In this document: positions 1 to 21,478 of the stretch, piece after piece | How the letters are laid out: each line of letters starts with the position of its first letter | Numbering within the stretch: the first letter of the stretch is position 1 | Made by a program: the position numbers and the translations under genes | NCBI GenBank assembly: GCA_016700375.1 | Contig: CP065016.1 | Location: 1,020,001 to 1,052,000 of the forward strand | Length of the DNA: 32,000 nucleotides | Origin: Candidatus Saccharimonadota bacterium | GTDB taxonomy: Bacteria > Patescibacteriota > Saccharimonadia > Saccharimonadales > UBA4665 | Reading direction: 5' to 3' | The notes under the pieces: model-generated | Databases searched by the model: none | What the model was told of the DNA's origin: nothing | The model's input: only the letters and a program-made list of their open reading frames with translations

Positions 1-1329
1 GGGGAGGTCAGTTGCCTCTATCATGCCGTCGTAACTCAGGAAATACAGCGAGTCGGCACCCACGTATGCACGTATTTCTGGCACGGTCATTTCCGAGGCA
101 ACGAGTTCTTTTTGTGTCGGAGTATTTATACCGTAGTAGTCGGGGTAGAGCACGGGTGGTGAGCTTATCATGAGGTGAACTTCAGTGGCGCCAGCGTCGC
201 GAAGCATTTGCACGGTTTTACGCATGGTGGTACCGCGCACAATTGAGTCGTCCACCAGGACAACGCGTCGACCGGATATGGCATCTACCAGCGGGTTAAG
301 TTTCATTTTGAGGTCGTGCTCGCGAAGTTCGGCCGTGGGGCGAATGAACGTGCGGTGTATGTAGCGGTTTTTTATAAGGTTCATTTCAAACGGTATACCG
401 CTAGCTTCGGCGTAACCGAGTGCGGCAGGAATAGCCGAGTCTGGAACGGGGATAACAACATCTGCTGCCACCGGTGACTCGTGTGCCATGATACGTCCGA
501 AATTCATTCGCACTTCATTGACACTTTTGCCGAGGATGATGCTATCGGGGCGTGCAAAGTAGACAAACTCGAAGATATCGAGCTTCTGTTCGCCTGGGAT
601 TACCTGACGAGACTCAATACCATCTGTTGTGATGACAACCATTTCACCTGGGGCAATTTCGCGCTCTACGGTTGCTCCTATGGTGTCGAGGGCGCACGTC
701 TCGCTAGCAACGATGTGGCTGCCATCTTCGAGTTTGCCGAGAGAAAGCGGCCGTATGCCGTGCTGGTCGCGGAAGGCAATTAGTGTATCTTGGTTCATGG
801 CCACGGCCGAAAACACGCCAGTGAAGAGTGGGTAGCATGCGGCTATTGCATCGGGCAGCGACAGACCCTGTTCGAGCTGGCAGGCGATTGCCGCTGCCAT
901 CATGCCGGAATCATTCAGCTTGCGCGTAGAGATATGGTGGCCCTTGAGGAACTCCTGAAGCTTGGTGGTGTCGGGGATGTTCCCGTTGTGCGCAAAGGCT
1001 AAGTCGTGCTTGTCGTCTAAGAATGGCTGGTTAAAACAGTCGTCGGTGCCACCAGAGGTAGAATAGCGGTTGTGACCGATGGCAATATGGCCAGGAAGCT
1101 TCACCAGGTCATCTTCGCGGTAGACAGTTGTCACGAGTCCAAAGTCACTGTGCAAGTGCAAGTTTTTGCCATCGCTGCTCGCTATACCCGAGCTTTCTTG
1201 CCCGCGATGTTGGAGTGCACATAGCCCATAAAACGACAAACGAGCCGCTTCTACTTCTGGGCTCGCTCCAAATATGCCAAAAACGGCACATTTTTCTTTT
1301 GGACGCATATAAGACTGGTTAATAACCAT
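1..1329 (-). CDS. purF: Amidophosphoribosyltransferase (glutamine-PRPP amidotransferase); C-terminus runs off the window
   Basis: Absent from the ORF track because it has no in-window stop. Manual translation of the minus strand from the ATG (revcomp of 1327-1329) gives MVINQSYMRPKEKCAVFGIFG..ALQHRGQESSGIA..GHNRYSTSG..VVLVDDSIVRGTTMRK. This shows a short propeptide with the catalytic Cys, the Ntn-glutaminase motifs and the PRPP loop. The frame stays open for all 443 codons. Confidence 0.9.
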   Translation of the reverse strand, partial: MVINQSYMRPKEKCAVFGIFGASPEVEAARLSFYGLCALQHRGQESSGIASSDGKNLHLHSDFGLVTTVYREDDLVKLPGHIAIGHNRYSTSGGTDDCFNQPFLDDKHDLAFAHNGNIPDTTKLQEFLKGHHISTRKLNDSGMMAAAIACQLEQGLSLPDAIAACYPLFTGVFSAVAMNQDTLIAFRDQHGIRPLSLGKLEDGSHIVASETCALDTIGATVEREIAPGEMVVITTDGIESRQVIPGEQKLDIFEFVYFARPDSIILGKSVNEVRMNFGRIMAHESPVAADVVIPVPDSAIPAALGYAEASGIPFEMNLIKNRYIHRTFIRPTAELREHDLKMKLNPLVDAISGRRVVLVDDSIVRGTTMRKTVQMLRDAGATEVHLMISSPPVLYPDYYGINTPTQKELVASEMTVPEIRAYVGADSLYFLSYDGMIEATDLP

Positions 1330-8629: not shown

Positions 8630-8674
8630 CTGGTTAGACGAAAACTAAACTGGCATTGGGGTACAATAACAGAT

Positions 8675-8848
8675 ATGGACGATAAAGATGAAGTAAAACT
8701 ACCCTGTGCAGACAAGATTGCCTTTGACACAAAAAAACAGGCTGCAGCCACGGCTACCACAAGTGAATACTGGTACGGCCGCCGCCCCCACGCCTATCAC
8801 TGCCGCCACTGCCACCTATGGCACCTCTCCACATCACCAAAAGACTAG
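8675..8848 (+). CDS. Small Cys/His-rich protein, 57 aa (below the ORF-track cutoff)
   Basis: Manual translation gives MDDKDEVKLPCADKIAFDTKKQAAATATTSEYWYGRRPHAYHCRHCHLWHLSTSPKD. It contains C..(30)..YHCRHCHLWH, a zinc-ribbon-like motif. It lies just downstream of the deaminase-like gene on the same strand. The overlapping track ORF 8706..8900 is in another frame and looks non-coding. Confidence 0.45.
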   Translation: MDDKDEVKLPCADKIAFDTKKQAAATATTSEYWYGRRPHAYHCRHCHLWHLSTSPKD

Positions 8849-8956
8849 CGTATACTTGCTAGTGCAACCGAAGCATCCTGTATCGTCAACGAGGCGATAG
8901 CCGAGCTTTAGGGCAGGAGGAGAGCAGTATTCGGATTTATTCCGAATCGGCGAAGA

Positions 8957-9052
8957 GGTGAGGATAGTCAGTGACTGTCGGCAAGGGAATGTTCCGGTGC
9001 AAACTTGTTTGCAACAGTGAACTTCCGGGGCCGCAGGATGCGGCTAGGCCTC
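8957..9052 (+). ncRNA. Structured repeat module, copy A0 (tandem, immediately upstream of the tRNA-like gene)
   Basis: GGTGAGGA, hairpin ATAGTC-AGT-GACTGT, CGGCAAGGGAA, hairpin TGCAAAC-TTG-GTTTGCA, GTGAACTTCCGGGG, hairpin GCCGCA-GGA-TGCGGC, TAGGCCTC. This is the same order of elements as copies A, C and D. Confidence 0.5.
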
Positions 9053-9059
9053 TTGGATA

Positions 9060-16786: not shown

Positions 16787-19700
16787 CTATTTAAACTCAA
16801 GCACACGATCGCGACGGTAGCGGATAGGGTAACTACCAGAGCCTTCCGAGTAGAGATAAGTACCGTCGTACTTGATTAAGTTGACACTTCGCCAATAATT
16901 ACCACTGCCAGGACGTGTGCTTTGGTATCTTATGTTTATCGTTCCGCCAGACCTAGCTTGCAAGTAGCCCTCAAATACTTCTTGGTCAACACCACGGTCT
17001 CCGACACTAAACTCTTTTTTTGTCGAAGTCTTAGCCTTCGTTCTAGTTGCTCGTGGTGCGGGTGTTGCGTTCACGGGACTCACATTATCAACCCGTTCAT
17101 CAGAGAAATCGGTAATATACGTGTCTTTTGGGGCATCTTCAGGTGCAACCGTTTCTTTTTCTAGCTCTTTAACGACACTCGTCTTGCCTGCATTATGCTC
17201 ATCATTAAAGAACTCTCCTAGATGCACCAGTAAGGCTTTCTCTTCTTCTGCCTGATCGTCAACCCAATCAAAGTAGGAAATACGATAAAAGGTCCATCCC
17301 GCTACCTCTAAGGCACCTTGACGTTCCCAGTCGTTCTGTACATAAACTTGCCCGTCTCCGCCTTCAAAGTGAGTCGGGCCATCACACTCGATGGCAAGCT
17401 TCCTGCCATTATGATGAACAACGAGGTCGATTTTAAACCCAAGTGACTCTGCTTGCGTTTCCAGTGTAAACTCATTCGCATCAAGTTGTTTCGATAAGTA
17501 GTTAAAAACTTGCTCTTCGAAGTGAGAATCAAAACGCTGTTCAGCTTTACTATGCCTTCTTGATATTGCTCCGTTCTTATCGACATACTCCAGGTACTTC
17601 TTAATCCAAATACCCTCAGGCCAAAGCTCTGTAGCAAGAGATGTCACACAATGGACTTGAAGTCGGGCACGACTAAACGCAACGTTCACACGGCCAGCAG
17701 CTATGTCTTTACGTATTTCGCCACCTTCGCCAGTTAACGCGATATAACGTCGCTTATCGCATGGGTCTTTGATGACAAATGAATAAATTACAATATCGCG
17801 TTCATCACCCTGGATGCCGTCAATAATCGAAACTTTGATGTCTTCATCCGGGATGGCTTTACGTATTTCTTCGGCTTGCTCGTTAAAGAATGTCAATATT
17901 GCTATAGACTTGTCTTTTAGAATTGGGTCTATCTTAATTTCTTCTACCAGCTGTTGGATTTTGTGTATTTCCGCAATGTTTGTTCTACTGCCCATCTCCT
18001 CATTATCATTTGGAGTTACCAAATGATTAAGCAAGACACGACCAGTATCTTTGTAGGGGACGATATTGTCGTTTACAGCTTCAAGCTTACGGCCGATAGG
18101 TTCGTAATATGCCTCATTAGAGAAGCCAATTAGTTCTTTAGGGGACCGATAGTGATACTTTAAAGTTGTGGTCTTAAACCCATTTAGATTTGCGATGTCC
18201 ATCACTGATTTAACTGTGTCTTCTTCAGCTTTAATCTGATAAACATCAGGAATCTTATGCTTCTTTGCTATTGCATTAAGCTGGTCATTAGACTTGAACA
18301 TAATGTTATCGTCACGCATTTGTAACGTATCCCCAAAGAATATTGTGTGCTCTGCACGGTACATTGCTGGAAACGCATAAGCAAAATTACACTGTGATGC
18401 TTCGTCAATAATCACGTAATCAAATGCGTTCATCTCCAATGGGACAATACGACTCACATCGTCCAAGCTCATCATCCAGATAGGCAGAACTTTTGACATA
18501 GCACTAAAGTTATCTTCATTATGCTTAAGCCTGTCAAAAGTTTTATTTGCTTTCTTGCTCTTTGAAAGGCTTCTGGCAACTTGTGCTAAAGTCGCTCTTA
18601 GCTCTTTGCTGTTATTAGCTTCACCAACTCTTGTTAGTATTCGGTTGCGGACATAGTTAGTAATGTTTTTTCTATAGAACTTTCGAATATCTTTGATTTC
18701 TCGGTTCAGCTCGTTTGCGGAGTATAACGACGCCTCGTCTATATGAGCAGAAATCTCACTATACCTTTCGAGGTCTTCGAATACTTTGTTCTCGCTACCG
18801 TGTTCGCTGACTATCTTTTTAAGGCTTGCGAGGGCAGTATGTGGCATATCTTTGTTCTGAAGAAATTCGTCGAGTTCTGAACGGGTATTCGCTAATATTT
18901 GGTTATCATTTGAATATACAAAGTATGCCTTAAGTCCATCTAGTAATTTTAGTTTTGCTGACTTTGTATTGTCGGAAAATAATATCTTTTCAAACTCTAC
19001 GTATATTTCTTGAGGGATGGATTTGCAGTGTTCTCTTAGTGCACTACGAAGCTTTAGGTCATTTACCTTGCTCGCAAAAAAGCCAGACCGTTCTGGCATA
19101 TGGGTTTTGAAGTAATCGTTTACGTTCTCTATGGAAGCAATAGTTCCTTGATAGTCAATTTCAAGGTCCTTAAATTTGGTATCAGCTGTTCTTATAAATT
19201 TACTGTGAGCATTCTCGAATTGTTTGATTGCAGACTCGAGATTCTCAATAGTCTTTTCAAAATCTAAACATTGGTTATAAAACTCTAGGTCGATACCGTA
19301 ATTATAATAAGGGTCGAGGTAGCCTAGGTTTCGACGTTCTTCATAAAGCGAGTAGAGTGAACGCTCAATGCTCATATTCTCTACGAAAATCTTTGAACGG
19401 TCAGCAAGCAACTCAAGCGGCTCTTTTAAGTCGCCGACTTTGCCTTTCTGAAACTCTCTATTTAACGCTATCAGCGTATTCGCAGCACTGTCTTTTTCGT
19501 CATCAGCCGTGTATAGCTTAGAGGTTTTATCGGGTATGTAGCCGAAGAGAAATGGTACATCAAGAGTTTTTAGCTTGTCCTTTACTCCACGTATCGCCTG
19601 GTCTTTTTGGCTAGCGAATAATATTCTTTTTCCTGTAGATGCTAAATGAACTAGTAGGTTTGAAATGGTTTGAGATTTACCAGTGCCAGGAGGACCTTCG

Positions 19701-20659
19701 ACTATGACGGCCTTATTGGCTGTAATGCCCAATACTTTAAGCTGGAACTTGTCATAATCGAATGGAAAGAATATCTCTGTACTGCCATCGTCTGATACGG
19801 CCTGTTCTATTGCCATATCTTCGTCAGATACCCAGCTTCCTAAGGAAGTCTCAATCAGGTCTTCATCTTCAAGAGCAGCAATCGCCCTAAGGTCTTCAGC
19901 TAAAAAGTGGTTAGTCTTATTCGTAATCGCAACTATGCTGGTATCAAAACTTGGTGATTCAGAAATGGACTTGGCATCTACTCTATCAAGTTGCACTCTA
20001 ATTGCTGACCACAAATCTTCAATAAACTCACTTCCGATTGGGAGGCTAGTCTTACCCTCAGCTTCCGAGTCGGCAACAAACTTAAAAACGTTATCGTAGT
20101 ATTGTTGCGGCAAGTAGTTTTTGAGTGGGCCGCTCAATACTTCTACATAGCTATCGGGTAGCTCAATGACTACATTAGCTCCATCGCTCGTGTATCTAAA
20201 GTTAATGGCAGCTACTGGAATTTGTAACAACGGTGCTTCGTAGTTTTCATACTCTTCACCGAACTCGGTCTCCTTGTAGCGTTTACCCTCAAAGGATATA
20301 AAGCCAGTCTGCAAGACGACCCTCTTTGTATATTCGTCAGTTTTTATCTTTGTGTCAATTTCTTGGATTTTATCGAAGATAGCCCTGTCGCGTACAACGC
20401 GATGCTCAGCCTGGAGCTGTTCGTCAGTCTTATCTTCACTCGATAAGTCTGGGTCATATTGGCTGCCCAATGAGGTGACTAGGTTGATTGTTGTCGAGTC
20501 GACTTCACTTTTAAAAATCAAATCGGCGACAGGCACGAGGCTGCCGTCCATAGGCTCAGTCTTAATCGGTCGACTTCTTGAGGCACTACTTGATATTAGG
20601 CTTACATAGTCAAGACCGTATTTTGCTAGTTGACTGATAGTTACTGGTATTTTTGTCAT
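16787..20659 (-). CDS. Giant SF1B (Upf1/Dna2-like, DUF4011-type) helicase fused to a Vsr/DUF559-like PD-(D/E)xK endonuclease and a WYL-like C-terminal domain (1290 aa)
   Basis: GPPGTGKS (19673-19696), YVIIDEASQC (18389-18418), FFGDTLQM, YHYRSPKEL, IDGIQGDERDIVIYSFV, GRVNVAFSRARLQV. Endonuclease signature KIDLVVHHNGRKLAIECDGPTHF (17366-17434). The tail INIRYQ..YWRSVNLIKYDGTYLYSEG..YPIRYRRDRVLEF lies at about 16790-17020. Confidence 0.8.
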   Translation of the reverse strand: MTKIPVTISQLAKYGLDYVSLISSSASRSRPIKTEPMDGSLVPVADLIFKSEVDSTTINLVTSLGSQYDPDLSSEDKTDEQLQAEHRVVRDRAIFDKIQEIDTKIKTDEYTKRVVLQTGFISFEGKRYKETEFGEEYENYEAPLLQIPVAAINFRYTSDGANVVIELPDSYVEVLSGPLKNYLPQQYYDNVFKFVADSEAEGKTSLPIGSEFIEDLWSAIRVQLDRVDAKSISESPSFDTSIVAITNKTNHFLAEDLRAIAALEDEDLIETSLGSWVSDEDMAIEQAVSDDGSTEIFFPFDYDKFQLKVLGITANKAVIVEGPPGTGKSQTISNLLVHLASTGKRILFASQKDQAIRGVKDKLKTLDVPFLFGYIPDKTSKLYTADDEKDSAANTLIALNREFQKGKVGDLKEPLELLADRSKIFVENMSIERSLYSLYEERRNLGYLDPYYNYGIDLEFYNQCLDFEKTIENLESAIKQFENAHSKFIRTADTKFKDLEIDYQGTIASIENVNDYFKTHMPERSGFFASKVNDLKLRSALREHCKSIPQEIYVEFEKILFSDNTKSAKLKLLDGLKAYFVYSNDNQILANTRSELDEFLQNKDMPHTALASLKKIVSEHGSENKVFEDLERYSEISAHIDEASLYSANELNREIKDIRKFYRKNITNYVRNRILTRVGEANNSKELRATLAQVARSLSKSKKANKTFDRLKHNEDNFSAMSKVLPIWMMSLDDVSRIVPLEMNAFDYVIIDEASQCNFAYAFPAMYRAEHTIFFGDTLQMRDDNIMFKSNDQLNAIAKKHKIPDVYQIKAEEDTVKSVMDIANLNGFKTTTLKYHYRSPKELIGFSNEAYYEPIGRKLEAVNDNIVPYKDTGRVLLNHLVTPNDNEEMGSRTNIAEIHKIQQLVEEIKIDPILKDKSIAILTFFNEQAEEIRKAIPDEDIKVSIIDGIQGDERDIVIYSFVIKDPCDKRRYIALTGEGGEIRKDIAAGRVNVAFSRARLQVHCVTSLATELWPEGIWIKKYLEYVDKNGAISRRHSKAEQRFDSHFEEQVFNYLSKQLDANEFTLETQAESLGFKIDLVVHHNGRKLAIECDGPTHFEGGDGQVYVQNDWERQGALEVAGWTFYRISYFDWVDDQAEEEKALLVHLGEFFNDEHNAGKTSVVKELEKETVAPEDAPKDTYITDFSDERVDNVSPVNATPAPRATRTKAKTSTKKEFSVGDRGVDQEVFEGYLQARSGGTINIRYQSTRPGSGNYWRSVNLIKYDGTYLYSEGSGSYPIRYRRDRVLEFK

Positions 20660-20689
20660 AGGTTATAAACGGGTTGAAATCCTAGCAAA

Positions 20690-20695
20690 ATTATA
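20690..20695 (-). promoter_or_regulatory. Candidate -10 box (TATAAT) for the helicase/OLD operon
   Basis: TATAAT lies on the minus strand 31 nt upstream of the ATG at 20659. The -35 is weak. Not validated. Confidence 0.3.
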
Positions 20696-20837
20696 CAACA
20701 GTCGTCCTACGTTAGCGAGGAGGTTATAAGAAGTTAATTGGTCTTACGAGGTTTATCCTCGCACAGGGGTGGTTAATGTGAATTTTCGTCTGGGACGGCA
20801 AAATAACAGGGGCGGGTTTAACCTGGGATATTTTTTA

Positions 20838-20984
20838 TGGTAAGGGGACTCTACCTACCTTCGGCAGGCTCGGAACTTCACGGCGTCAAGCATAGCTTGA
20901 CCCGGAAGATTCCCTTGCAAAGCACCACTGGTGCTTCTCAGCCTGGCCTCTACTCGGCCAGGCGTTAGAATCTCTCACGCCAGA
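20838..20984 (-). ncRNA. Structured repeat module, copy D, between the tRNA-Gly terminator and the helicase promoter region
   Basis: The minus strand reads TCTGGCGTGAGAGATTCTAACGCC..GAGGCCAGGC | TGAGAAGCACCAGTGGTGCTTTGCAAGGGAATCTTCCGGGTCAAGCTATGCTTGACGCCGTGAAGTTCCGAGCCTGCCGAAGGTAGG | TAGAGTCCCCTTACCA. It is near-collinear with copy A and shows compensatory stem changes. Confidence 0.55.
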
Positions 20985-20988
20985 CCAT

Positions 20989-21020
20989 ATAAAAAGCCTC
21001 ACTTTCGTGAGACTCTTTAC
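20989..21020 (-). terminator. Hairpin terminator directly after tRNA-Gly
   Basis: AAAGAGTCTCAC-GAAA-GTGAGGCTTTTT on the minus strand, starting 2 nt after the CCA. Confidence 0.7.
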
Positions 21021-21021
21021 A

Positions 21022-21098
21022 TGGTGCGGGTCAGGGGACTCTAACCCCTGGCCTCGTCCTTGGCAAGGACGCGCTCTAAACAACTGAGCTAGACCCGC
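21022..21098 (-). tRNA. tRNA-Gly (GCC)
   Basis: The reverse complement folds as GCGGGTC-TA-GCTC-AGTTGTTTA-GAGC-G-CGTCC-TTGCCAA-GGACG-AGGCC-AGGGG-TTAGAGT-CCCCT-GACCCGC-A-CCA. Confidence 0.93.
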
Positions 21099-21149
21099 AT
21101 ATGTGGTAAATATATTGTAAAGTACGGTGTGGTATTTGCGAAGCGCGCA

Positions 21150-21279
21150 CTTGGCCTGGCAAGGAACGGTCACATTCCGCGACCCCGTCGCCACATCTTT
21201 GCAAACTAGTTTGCAAGAGTGGGCTCCCTTGCGTACCGCCACTGGCGGTCCTCACTCTAAACAACTGAGCTAGACCCGC
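21150..21279 (-). pseudogene. tRNA-Gly pseudogene interrupted by a partial copy (E) of the structured module
   Basis: The first 25 nt, GCGGGTCTAGCTCAGTTGTTTAGAG, are identical to tRNA-Gly. Then comes TGAGGACCGCCAGTGGCGGTACGCAAGGGA plus hairpin TTGCAAAC-TAG-TTTGCAA. Then CGTTCCTTGCCA-GGCCAAG, which is the tRNA-Gly anticodon arm and variable region with a 7-nt deletion. There is no T-arm or acceptor 3' end. Confidence 0.6.
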
Positions 21280-21478
21280 TCGTCACACCTTGGCAGCGAC
21301 TTCCGCTGCGCCGAAAAAAAATAATTTTCTTTCGCCGAGCTCCAGTCTTAGCCAGGTGCTCCTCTCAAAATCACAAACGGTCGACTTCGCTCCCTAGTTT
21401 GTGATTTTGGTTAGAAACCAGTACGACTAACAGGGAGAGATTATACTTGTTTGTTGGCGTGGTTGCAACTGCCAAACG

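Follow-up and report, generated by a model that had tools for sequence, protein, structure and literature searches.

Upstream of an intact tRNA-Gly(GCC) gene in a Candidatus Saccharimonadota genome lies a second copy of the same gene, interrupted by a structured module. The question raised by this arrangement is whether the module arrived there by insertion or recombination, or was fused to a tRNA once in an ancestor. The window was the entire stretch of DNA analyzed, 32,000 nt of contig CP065016.1 (positions 1,020,001 to 1,052,000), and coordinates given without a contig or genome name refer to it. The analyzed genome is designated G000 and its relatives carry other G numbers; the module is termed R1, and X denotes the interrupted tRNA-Gly copy at 21099-21279 on the minus strand. 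The initial annotation, made from the letters of the window, had argued for insertion or recombination rather than for one ancestral fusion, and the relatives supported this view through the sites occupied, near-identical modules, and empty alleles. With a probability of about 65%, we read X as a small cassette that resides in tRNA-Gly(GCC) in its tandem form, and R1 as behaving like a non-autonomous mobile cassette that enters tRNA genes or scaffolds.

Anatomy of the interrupted tRNA-Gly copy

One tRNA-Gly(GCC) was called at this locus by ARAGORN and Rfam (Table 1). Read 5' to 3', X and its neighbor comprise a promoter-like site and leader, tRNA nt 1-25, R1, an anticodon arm that has decayed, a spacer containing another promoter-like site, and the full tRNA-Gly. 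The stub and the intact gene form a direct repeat of 25 nt with a start-to-start spacing of 181 nt. The minus strand from 21279 had been described as tRNA-Gly(GCC) for 25 nt, which was borne out exactly. The identity had also been said to run through the D-loop, but the actual break falls after linear nt 25 (standard position 24/25), within the D-stem on its 3' strand, and the base just 3' of the module is a C that would complete this stem. Only the 5' half of the module and hairpin H2 had been recognized at X. The module is instead complete, H3 included: the covariance model matched it end to end (86 nt, 87.4 bits, model positions 1-87), and there is a single true mismatch across H1, H2, and H3.

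The 19 nt that follow the module share an exact 9-mer with tRNA-Gly(GCC), spanning the anticodon loop. tRNA-Gly(GCC) was the top match to this block among 42 tRNAs, and an equal score was reached in 57 of 5000 shuffles; a 7-nt deletion, as first proposed, and a 5-nt loop duplication tied in score as the best alignment. The earlier claim that the anticodon arm resumes after the module therefore appears modestly supported when judged from G000 alone. The claim stands through the orthologous copies in five other species, which keep the same block and argue convincingly for its tRNA origin.

The promoter-like site in the spacer has its -35 element at 21142-21137 and its -10 element, TACAAT, at 21119-21114, with a 17-nt spacing. 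This -10 element and its surroundings were also found in the orthologue of G017 and in the cassette of another type present in G003 and G018. Stub, module, and tRNA would be co-transcribed from the upstream promoter-like site. Two RNA libraries of one study yielded contigs that cover 21069-21284, bridging X and the tRNA, and that may be DNA carry-over. A joint in one RNA run that skips 152 nt was dropped because its shorter side is 28 nt and its size is unequal to the 181-nt unit. The public runs with G000 sequence derive from metagenomes of wastewater and sludge. A thermodynamic test of the full 181-nt unit was uninformative (z = -0.61). No recombinase or nuclease gene lies within or adjoining X, and there is no ORF or cargo between the repeats.

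A long hairpin and a run rich in purines lie in the leader (21280-21440, minus strand), which was also found upstream of tRNA-Gly in G041, G017, G013, G022, G003, and G018, the last having two tandem units.

Position 7 is a derived C in both the stub of X and the intact tRNA-Gly of G000, whereas in most congeners stub and gene alike have G there. In G018, a stub with the ancestral G lies beside an intact gene with the derived C. This pattern suggests exchange between the repeats.

Table 1. Coordinates of the features described in the text, with the basis on which each was assigned. Coordinates are those of the window unless a locus is named.
Feature	Coordinates	Strand	Basis
Intact tRNA-Gly(GCC)	21022..21098	-	ARAGORN and Rfam RF00005, 67.5 bits
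Stub of X, tRNA-Gly(GCC) nt 1-25, ending inside the D-stem 3' strand	21255..21279	-	100% identity to 21074-21098
Complete R1 module of X, subfamily I; H1, H2, and H3 hairpins and conserved purine-rich linkers	21169..21254	-	covariance model R1
Anticodon-arm remnant of tRNA-Gly; GCC anticodon loop retained, refolded as a 4-5 bp hairpin	21150..21168	-	exact 9-mer; block kept in five orthologous copies
Spacer (51 nt) with promoter-like site, just upstream of the intact tRNA	21099..21149	-	9/12 matches
Upstream promoter-like site (21468-21440) and leader of ~160 nt	21280..21468	-	10/12 matches
Copy D, tRNA-like scaffold downstream of the tRNA-Gly terminator, with a tRNA-Gly-like 3' end	20837..20988	-	R1 at 20854-20940, in T-loop
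Copy C, tRNA-Gly-derived scaffold	14815..14963	-	R1 at 14837-14922, in T-loop, 86.9 bits
Copy B, divergent; H1 and first linker in common, different continuation	13593..13679	-	47.7 bits
Copy A, tRNA-Val(CAC) pseudogene	9060..9223	+	R1 at 9115-9201, in T-loop, 100.6 bits
R1 as the 3' domain in a larger non-coding RNA, with a closing helix of its own instead of a tRNA stem	8959..9044	+	89.7 bits
GIY-YIG ORF (~90 residues) between a tRNA-Gly stub and an intact tRNA; stop codon inside the tRNA	L042 (G018:C6) 203-560	-	

The R1 fold and its distribution

The covariance model was built from 14 copies of G000, for which RNAalifold predicted 33 pairs, 25 of them with compensatory changes. About 80 loci were fetched from relatives, and 111 copies were aligned. 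In this larger alignment, which was fitted to the model and favors structure in consequence, 97% of the pair cells were paired and 30 of the 33 pairs had double changes; slid controls were 28-45% paired. The fold is a four-way junction in which the unpaired bases are almost invariant and the junction purines invariant. The top pairs by mutual information were helix pairs, and no tertiary contacts were singled out in the alignment by this measure. One pair in H3 is G.U in 90 of 109 distinct copies; because conservation of a G.U pair is specific to one strand, it argues for RNA rather than a DNA cruciform. Taken with the covariation, in which the large alignment is model-fitted, the data point to a fold at the RNA level.

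At the gathering threshold, Rfam 15 matched four tRNAs in the window and nothing else, and E-value scans of 20700-21400 and 8800-9300 gave chance-level matches only. Full-text literature searches yielded no description of R1 or of tRNA-nested cassettes in these bacteria. R1 is an undescribed, lineage-restricted RNA domain that is in no Rfam family.

The covariance model located 25 copies in G000 (1.26 Mb). R1 was present in 31 of 40 related genomes, the copy number ranging from 0 to 25 across the set: in 22 of the 23 others of the same genus and in 8 of the 16 from other families of the order. A phylum-wide sample contained it in only 2 of 151 genomes, both of the same order. A pattern scan of IMG/VR gave five matches, four of which scored 22-25 bits and one of which was not matched by the model; all were treated as chance, and the one match that was inspected lay in coding-looking sequence.

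When the flanks of the 111 copies were classified, 55 modules were found in a T-loop, 13 in an anticodon loop, 5 in a variable loop, and 12 at the end of the D-stem, the position occupied at X (tRNA-Gly, 6; tRNA-Pro, 4; two others). Another 16 were domains of larger non-coding RNAs with a closing helix of their own, and 10 were unclassified. At the tRNA-Gln locus of G000, the module lies in the D-loop. Overall, the sites comprise at least six sub-sites in at least 12 tRNA types. The initial annotation had placed the module in the T-loop of copies A, C, and D, as was confirmed, and had counted two tRNA sub-sites for it, which was correct and understated. All G000 copies in or directly beside a tRNA or stub are on the same strand as that tRNA or stub. 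The junctions are uniform, with G before the module and C or U after it, and T-loop insertions have lost 1 nt relative to the intact gene. Comparison of the module ends revealed no terminal inverted repeats. Target-site duplications, which had been suggested as a possible mark of insertion, were absent on alignment of filled with intact alleles.

In the tRNA-Pro stubs, the module occupies the same D-stem position as in X, and the tRNA's own anticodon loop is kept 3' of it. The anticodon stem of four such stubs (L063, L066, L073, and L001) differs from that of intact tRNA-Pro by a double, pair-preserving change. That this change is common to the stubs of four genomes hints at a structural constraint on the stub hairpin.

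Elsewhere in the window, the module of copy D belongs to subfamily II (96.6 bits), and copy A has decayed D and anticodon arms with an intact acceptor stem and CCA. The R1 copy at 8959-9044 is also present in G041 and G002. It lies in a larger non-coding RNA (8640-9050, plus strand) in which the R1 3' domain is preceded by a hairpin with a conserved loop; paralogues of this RNA were noted at G000:C1:452062, 766431, 1057757, 1009265, and 1011764, the last of which is absent from G041. Between tRNA-Phe and tRNA-Gly, comparison of 11111-20913 with L132/L133 revealed accessory and defense genes (an OLD-type nuclease, an SF1 helicase-nuclease, and others) that are replaced by different DNA in G041.

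Two compound arrangements were found in G000. At C1:677982-678139, a tRNA-Gly(CCC) stub contains an R1 that has a second one nested between its H2 and H3; at C1:1006568-1006827, in a tRNA-His array, the H2 loop of a module is split by an insert of ~95 nt. After T-loop copies, the T-loop remainder and an inverted complement of it just downstream often make up a short palindrome (e.g., G000:C1:256917-256935, L092, and L079), which could be a signature of fold-back repair or a selected hairpin.

About 20 of the 42 tRNA genes of G000 have same-strand partial copies within 2.5 kb, either 5' parts upstream or parts from the T-loop to the 3' end downstream. Since many of these have no R1 nearby, other cassette types probably exist. 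The single G000 contig begins inside a tRNA-Gln(CTG) gene (C1:1-60), and because the contig end does not continue that gene, the assembly is not closed, at a tRNA repeat. When this unclosed assembly was screened for a tRNA present solely as a module-interrupted gene, tRNA-Asn was absent from the ARAGORN and Rfam calls.

Orthologous loci, empty alleles, and exchanged modules

Loci of tRNA-Gly(GCC) were collected from 22 congeners with the tRNA itself as the anchor; the neighboring DUF4922 gene was dropped as a synteny anchor because it is kept in only one congener. The arrangement of X (promoter, nt 1-25, R1, anticodon-arm block, TACAAT spacer, and intact tRNA) was found in G017, G015, G021, G002, and G035, of which G035 belongs to another family. 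As the same succession of stub, module, and remnant occurs in five other species, the X copy is old and not a fresh insertion.

The closest relative, G041, has a 40-kb contig that is syntenic with the window at about 90-96% identity. The empty sites that the initial annotation had proposed to seek in related genomes were found there. At X, the leader (97% identical) directly abuts the intact tRNA in G041, and the difference is exactly one 181-nt unit bounded by the 25-nt repeat; at the site of copy A, G041 has a canonical tRNA-Val(CAC), as called by ARAGORN. The empty X site of G041 probably reflects loss of the unit and not a pre-insertion state. At the copy A locus of G002, the tandem form was observed: a stub, R1, a remnant, a promoter-like site, and an intact tRNA-Val.

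The X module is 90-91% identical to modules in the anticodon loop of tRNA-Leu (G008), the anticodon loop of tRNA-Pro (G003), and the variable loop of tRNA-Arg (G007); its identity to the module at the orthologous position in G017 is 88%. Its closest relatives include neither the X copies from G015, G002, G021, and G035 nor the neighboring copy D, and the H3 subfamily of copies A, C, and D is a different one. These relationships imply that modules were swapped at a fixed site. Elsewhere, pairs of modules were 93-98% identical although their flanks were no more alike than background; the members of one pair come from two families, and in another pair one module lies in an anticodon loop and its partner in a T-loop. 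Dispersed copies, near-identical modules in unrelated flanks, and variable copy number, all found for R1, are among the features by which MITEs and REP-like transposons are recognized. Sequence comparison supports the view that R1 is, or was, mobile.

Cassettes of other kinds occupy similar positions. In G003, G009, and G018, nt 1-22 of tRNA-Gly are followed by a different cassette, with two hairpins, at nearly the same position as X. The version in G018 has the same -10 motif and then a GIY-YIG ORF of 90 residues that ends inside the intact tRNA, and those of G003 and G009 are ORF-less or decayed forms. In G001, another, different insert precedes the same tRNA-Gly remnant. The tRNA-Ser locus of G018 contains an older stub with R1 in its T-loop and a second stub with a double hairpin and a GIY-YIG gene. 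A GIY-YIG ORF adjoins only 2-3 of the ~100 R1 copies sampled. There are seven PF01541 matches in G000, none of them at the X locus; a free-standing GIY-YIG gene beside tRNA-Arg in this genome was considered and is not a nested cassette.

Competing explanations and known systems

In tandem-form copies, an intact tRNA copy stands beside the stub. As we envision it, this form would be resolved by recombination. An event between the repeated 5' parts would leave an empty site, the state of both the tRNA-Gly and the tRNA-Val locus in G041, and an event in the shared 3' part would leave an interrupted tRNA, as at copy A. The element probably spreads as DNA, with the conserved D-arm and T-arm sequences common to tRNAs serving as the substrate for recombination or gene conversion; the uniform junctions, the absence of target-site duplication, and the 1-nt loss in the T-loop fit copying of this kind better than cut-and-paste transposition. 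A cut made in trans by a GIY-YIG nuclease is a plausible trigger. The fold would be retained through transcription of the module within tRNA precursors.

A different explanation, which we consider unlikely but which keeps real weight, is that R1 units are host non-coding RNA genes on tRNA-like scaffolds, spread by local duplication and given their tRNA-like flanks by gene conversion. The module would then be conserved for a cellular function, such as binding of a protein or ligand or service as a decoy. The very strong covariation and the invariant junction purines accord with this explanation, as do the downstream scaffolds with full acceptor stems and CCA ends that recur across families, the larger non-coding RNAs kept in relatives that have R1 as a domain, and the anticodon stem that tRNA-Pro stubs keep via compensatory change; the derived base common to the X stub and the neighboring tRNA would represent concerted evolution. 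However, a host module would still have had to enter at least six sub-sites in at least 12 tRNA types. Modules that are 93-98% identical have unrelated flanks, the copy number ranges from 0 to 25 among congeners, and many carriers are plainly truncated stubs; moreover, G041 has a functional tRNA-Val where G000 has a decayed, R1-bearing pseudogene. These observations favor the mobile cassette.

The strength of the covariation nevertheless hints at a function outside the mobile-cassette model, because a selfish DNA insert needs no conserved RNA fold. A purely selfish element also has no obvious need for a four-way junction; the RNA would either matter to the element or serve the cell. One may suppose that the R1 fold is itself the active part, either in its spread into tRNA loops (RNA-guided or RNA-templated insertion) or as a host-useful domain carried by the cassette, which may bind a protein or ligand or act as a tRNA-like decoy. 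With either version one could understand why the four-way junction and the invariant purines were kept through hundreds of compensatory changes; we hold the idea tentatively and judge it distinctly improbable.

Very improbable, and disfavored for X, is the notion that the partial tRNA copies are attachment-site scars of integrase-driven islands at tRNA-Gly, with the module as a conserved island end. Copies C and D do end in tRNA-Gly 3' parts and bracket accessory and defense genes that are absent from G041, and many G000 tRNAs have downstream 3'-part repeats that start in the T-loop. At X, however, the stub lies upstream of the gene and repeats its 5' part, whereas it is the 3' part that integrase scars duplicate; only 181 nt separate the repeats, and these include neither cargo nor integrase. 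Insertions in the anticodon loop, the variable loop, and the D-stem with 5' duplication do not fit, and a conserved G.U pair with strand-specific covariation is not expected of sites at which a protein binds the arms.

The idea of an intron, with X as a second tRNA-Gly that becomes functional once the module is removed, is hardly tenable. The insertion positions, in loops and at helix ends, resemble non-canonical positions of archaeal tRNA introns, but X has neither a T-arm nor a 3' acceptor strand, and no tRNA could be made from it, which refutes the idea for this copy. Removal of the module would leave a T-loop 1 nt short, carriers such as copy A have decaying arms, and Rfam contains no intron or ribozyme family that matches.

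An origin of X by simple duplication of a local segment spanning the tRNA-Gly region and copy D, the outcome that the initial annotation had named as fatal to its claim, is refuted and retains next to no probability: X, the tRNA, and D do lie within 450 nt on one strand, but the best matches to the X module (90-91%) are in other genomes and D is not among its closest relatives, the two differ in H3 subfamily and sub-site, and the X arrangement recurs in five other species, several of them without an R1 match downstream of the tRNA.

If the mobile-cassette reading is correct, a lineage-specific, folded RNA cassette colonizes the tRNA genes of these tiny bacteria and leaves a working tRNA beside its tandem-form stubs. 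It would account for the many "broken tRNA" fragments that are a source of confused annotation and broken assemblies in these genomes, and the link between R1 and the small GIY-YIG cassettes would suggest a broader, unpublished selfish-DNA lifestyle inside essential RNA genes. As a new RNA family with unusually rich covariation, R1 would be a good target for structural work, and the filled, empty, and tandem alleles at tRNA-Gly and tRNA-Val would make the pathway of insertion and resolution testable.

Among known systems, X resembles tRNA-nested GIY-YIG cassettes in having a 5' stub, a structured plug, a promoter-like spacer, an intact tRNA, and direct repeats of ~25 nt. It differs from them in the absence of a nuclease ORF, in a spacer of 51 nt, and in the plug, which is not a double hairpin but an 86-nt four-way-junction RNA with strong covariation; furthermore, R1 also occurs in the T-loops of complete scaffolds and in larger RNAs, without stub or duplication. 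Introns in tRNA genes include bacterial group I introns in anticodon loops and archaeal bulge-helix-bulge introns at D-loop, T-loop, and variable positions. R1 is likewise a structured insert at several alternative loop positions of tRNA genes, but there is no sign of its removal, its carriers are truncated or decayed, an intact tRNA is usually present alongside, and it is too small for a group I core. Genomic islands anchored at tRNA genes leave repeated partial tRNA ends, and at the tRNA-Gly hotspot (copies C and D) direct repeats of partial tRNAs do flank variable DNA. Unlike such islands, X repeats the 5' part and contains no cargo or integrase, and its repeated unit is an RNA-like fold.

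The Correia/NEMIS, BOX/RUP, ERIC, and REP/REPIN families are small, non-autonomous repeats that are co-transcribed and fold as RNA. R1 is similarly short, non-coding, and multi-copy, keeps its hairpins, and varies in copy number between close relatives; it would also resemble them in being transcribed with neighboring genes. It differs from them in having neither terminal inverted repeats nor target-site duplication, in forming a multi-helix junction rather than one hairpin, in its strict preference for the loops of tRNA genes, and in its strand-specific G.U pair. Unlike recent, near-identical bursts of small repeats, the copies of R1 are old and diverged, with compensatory changes.
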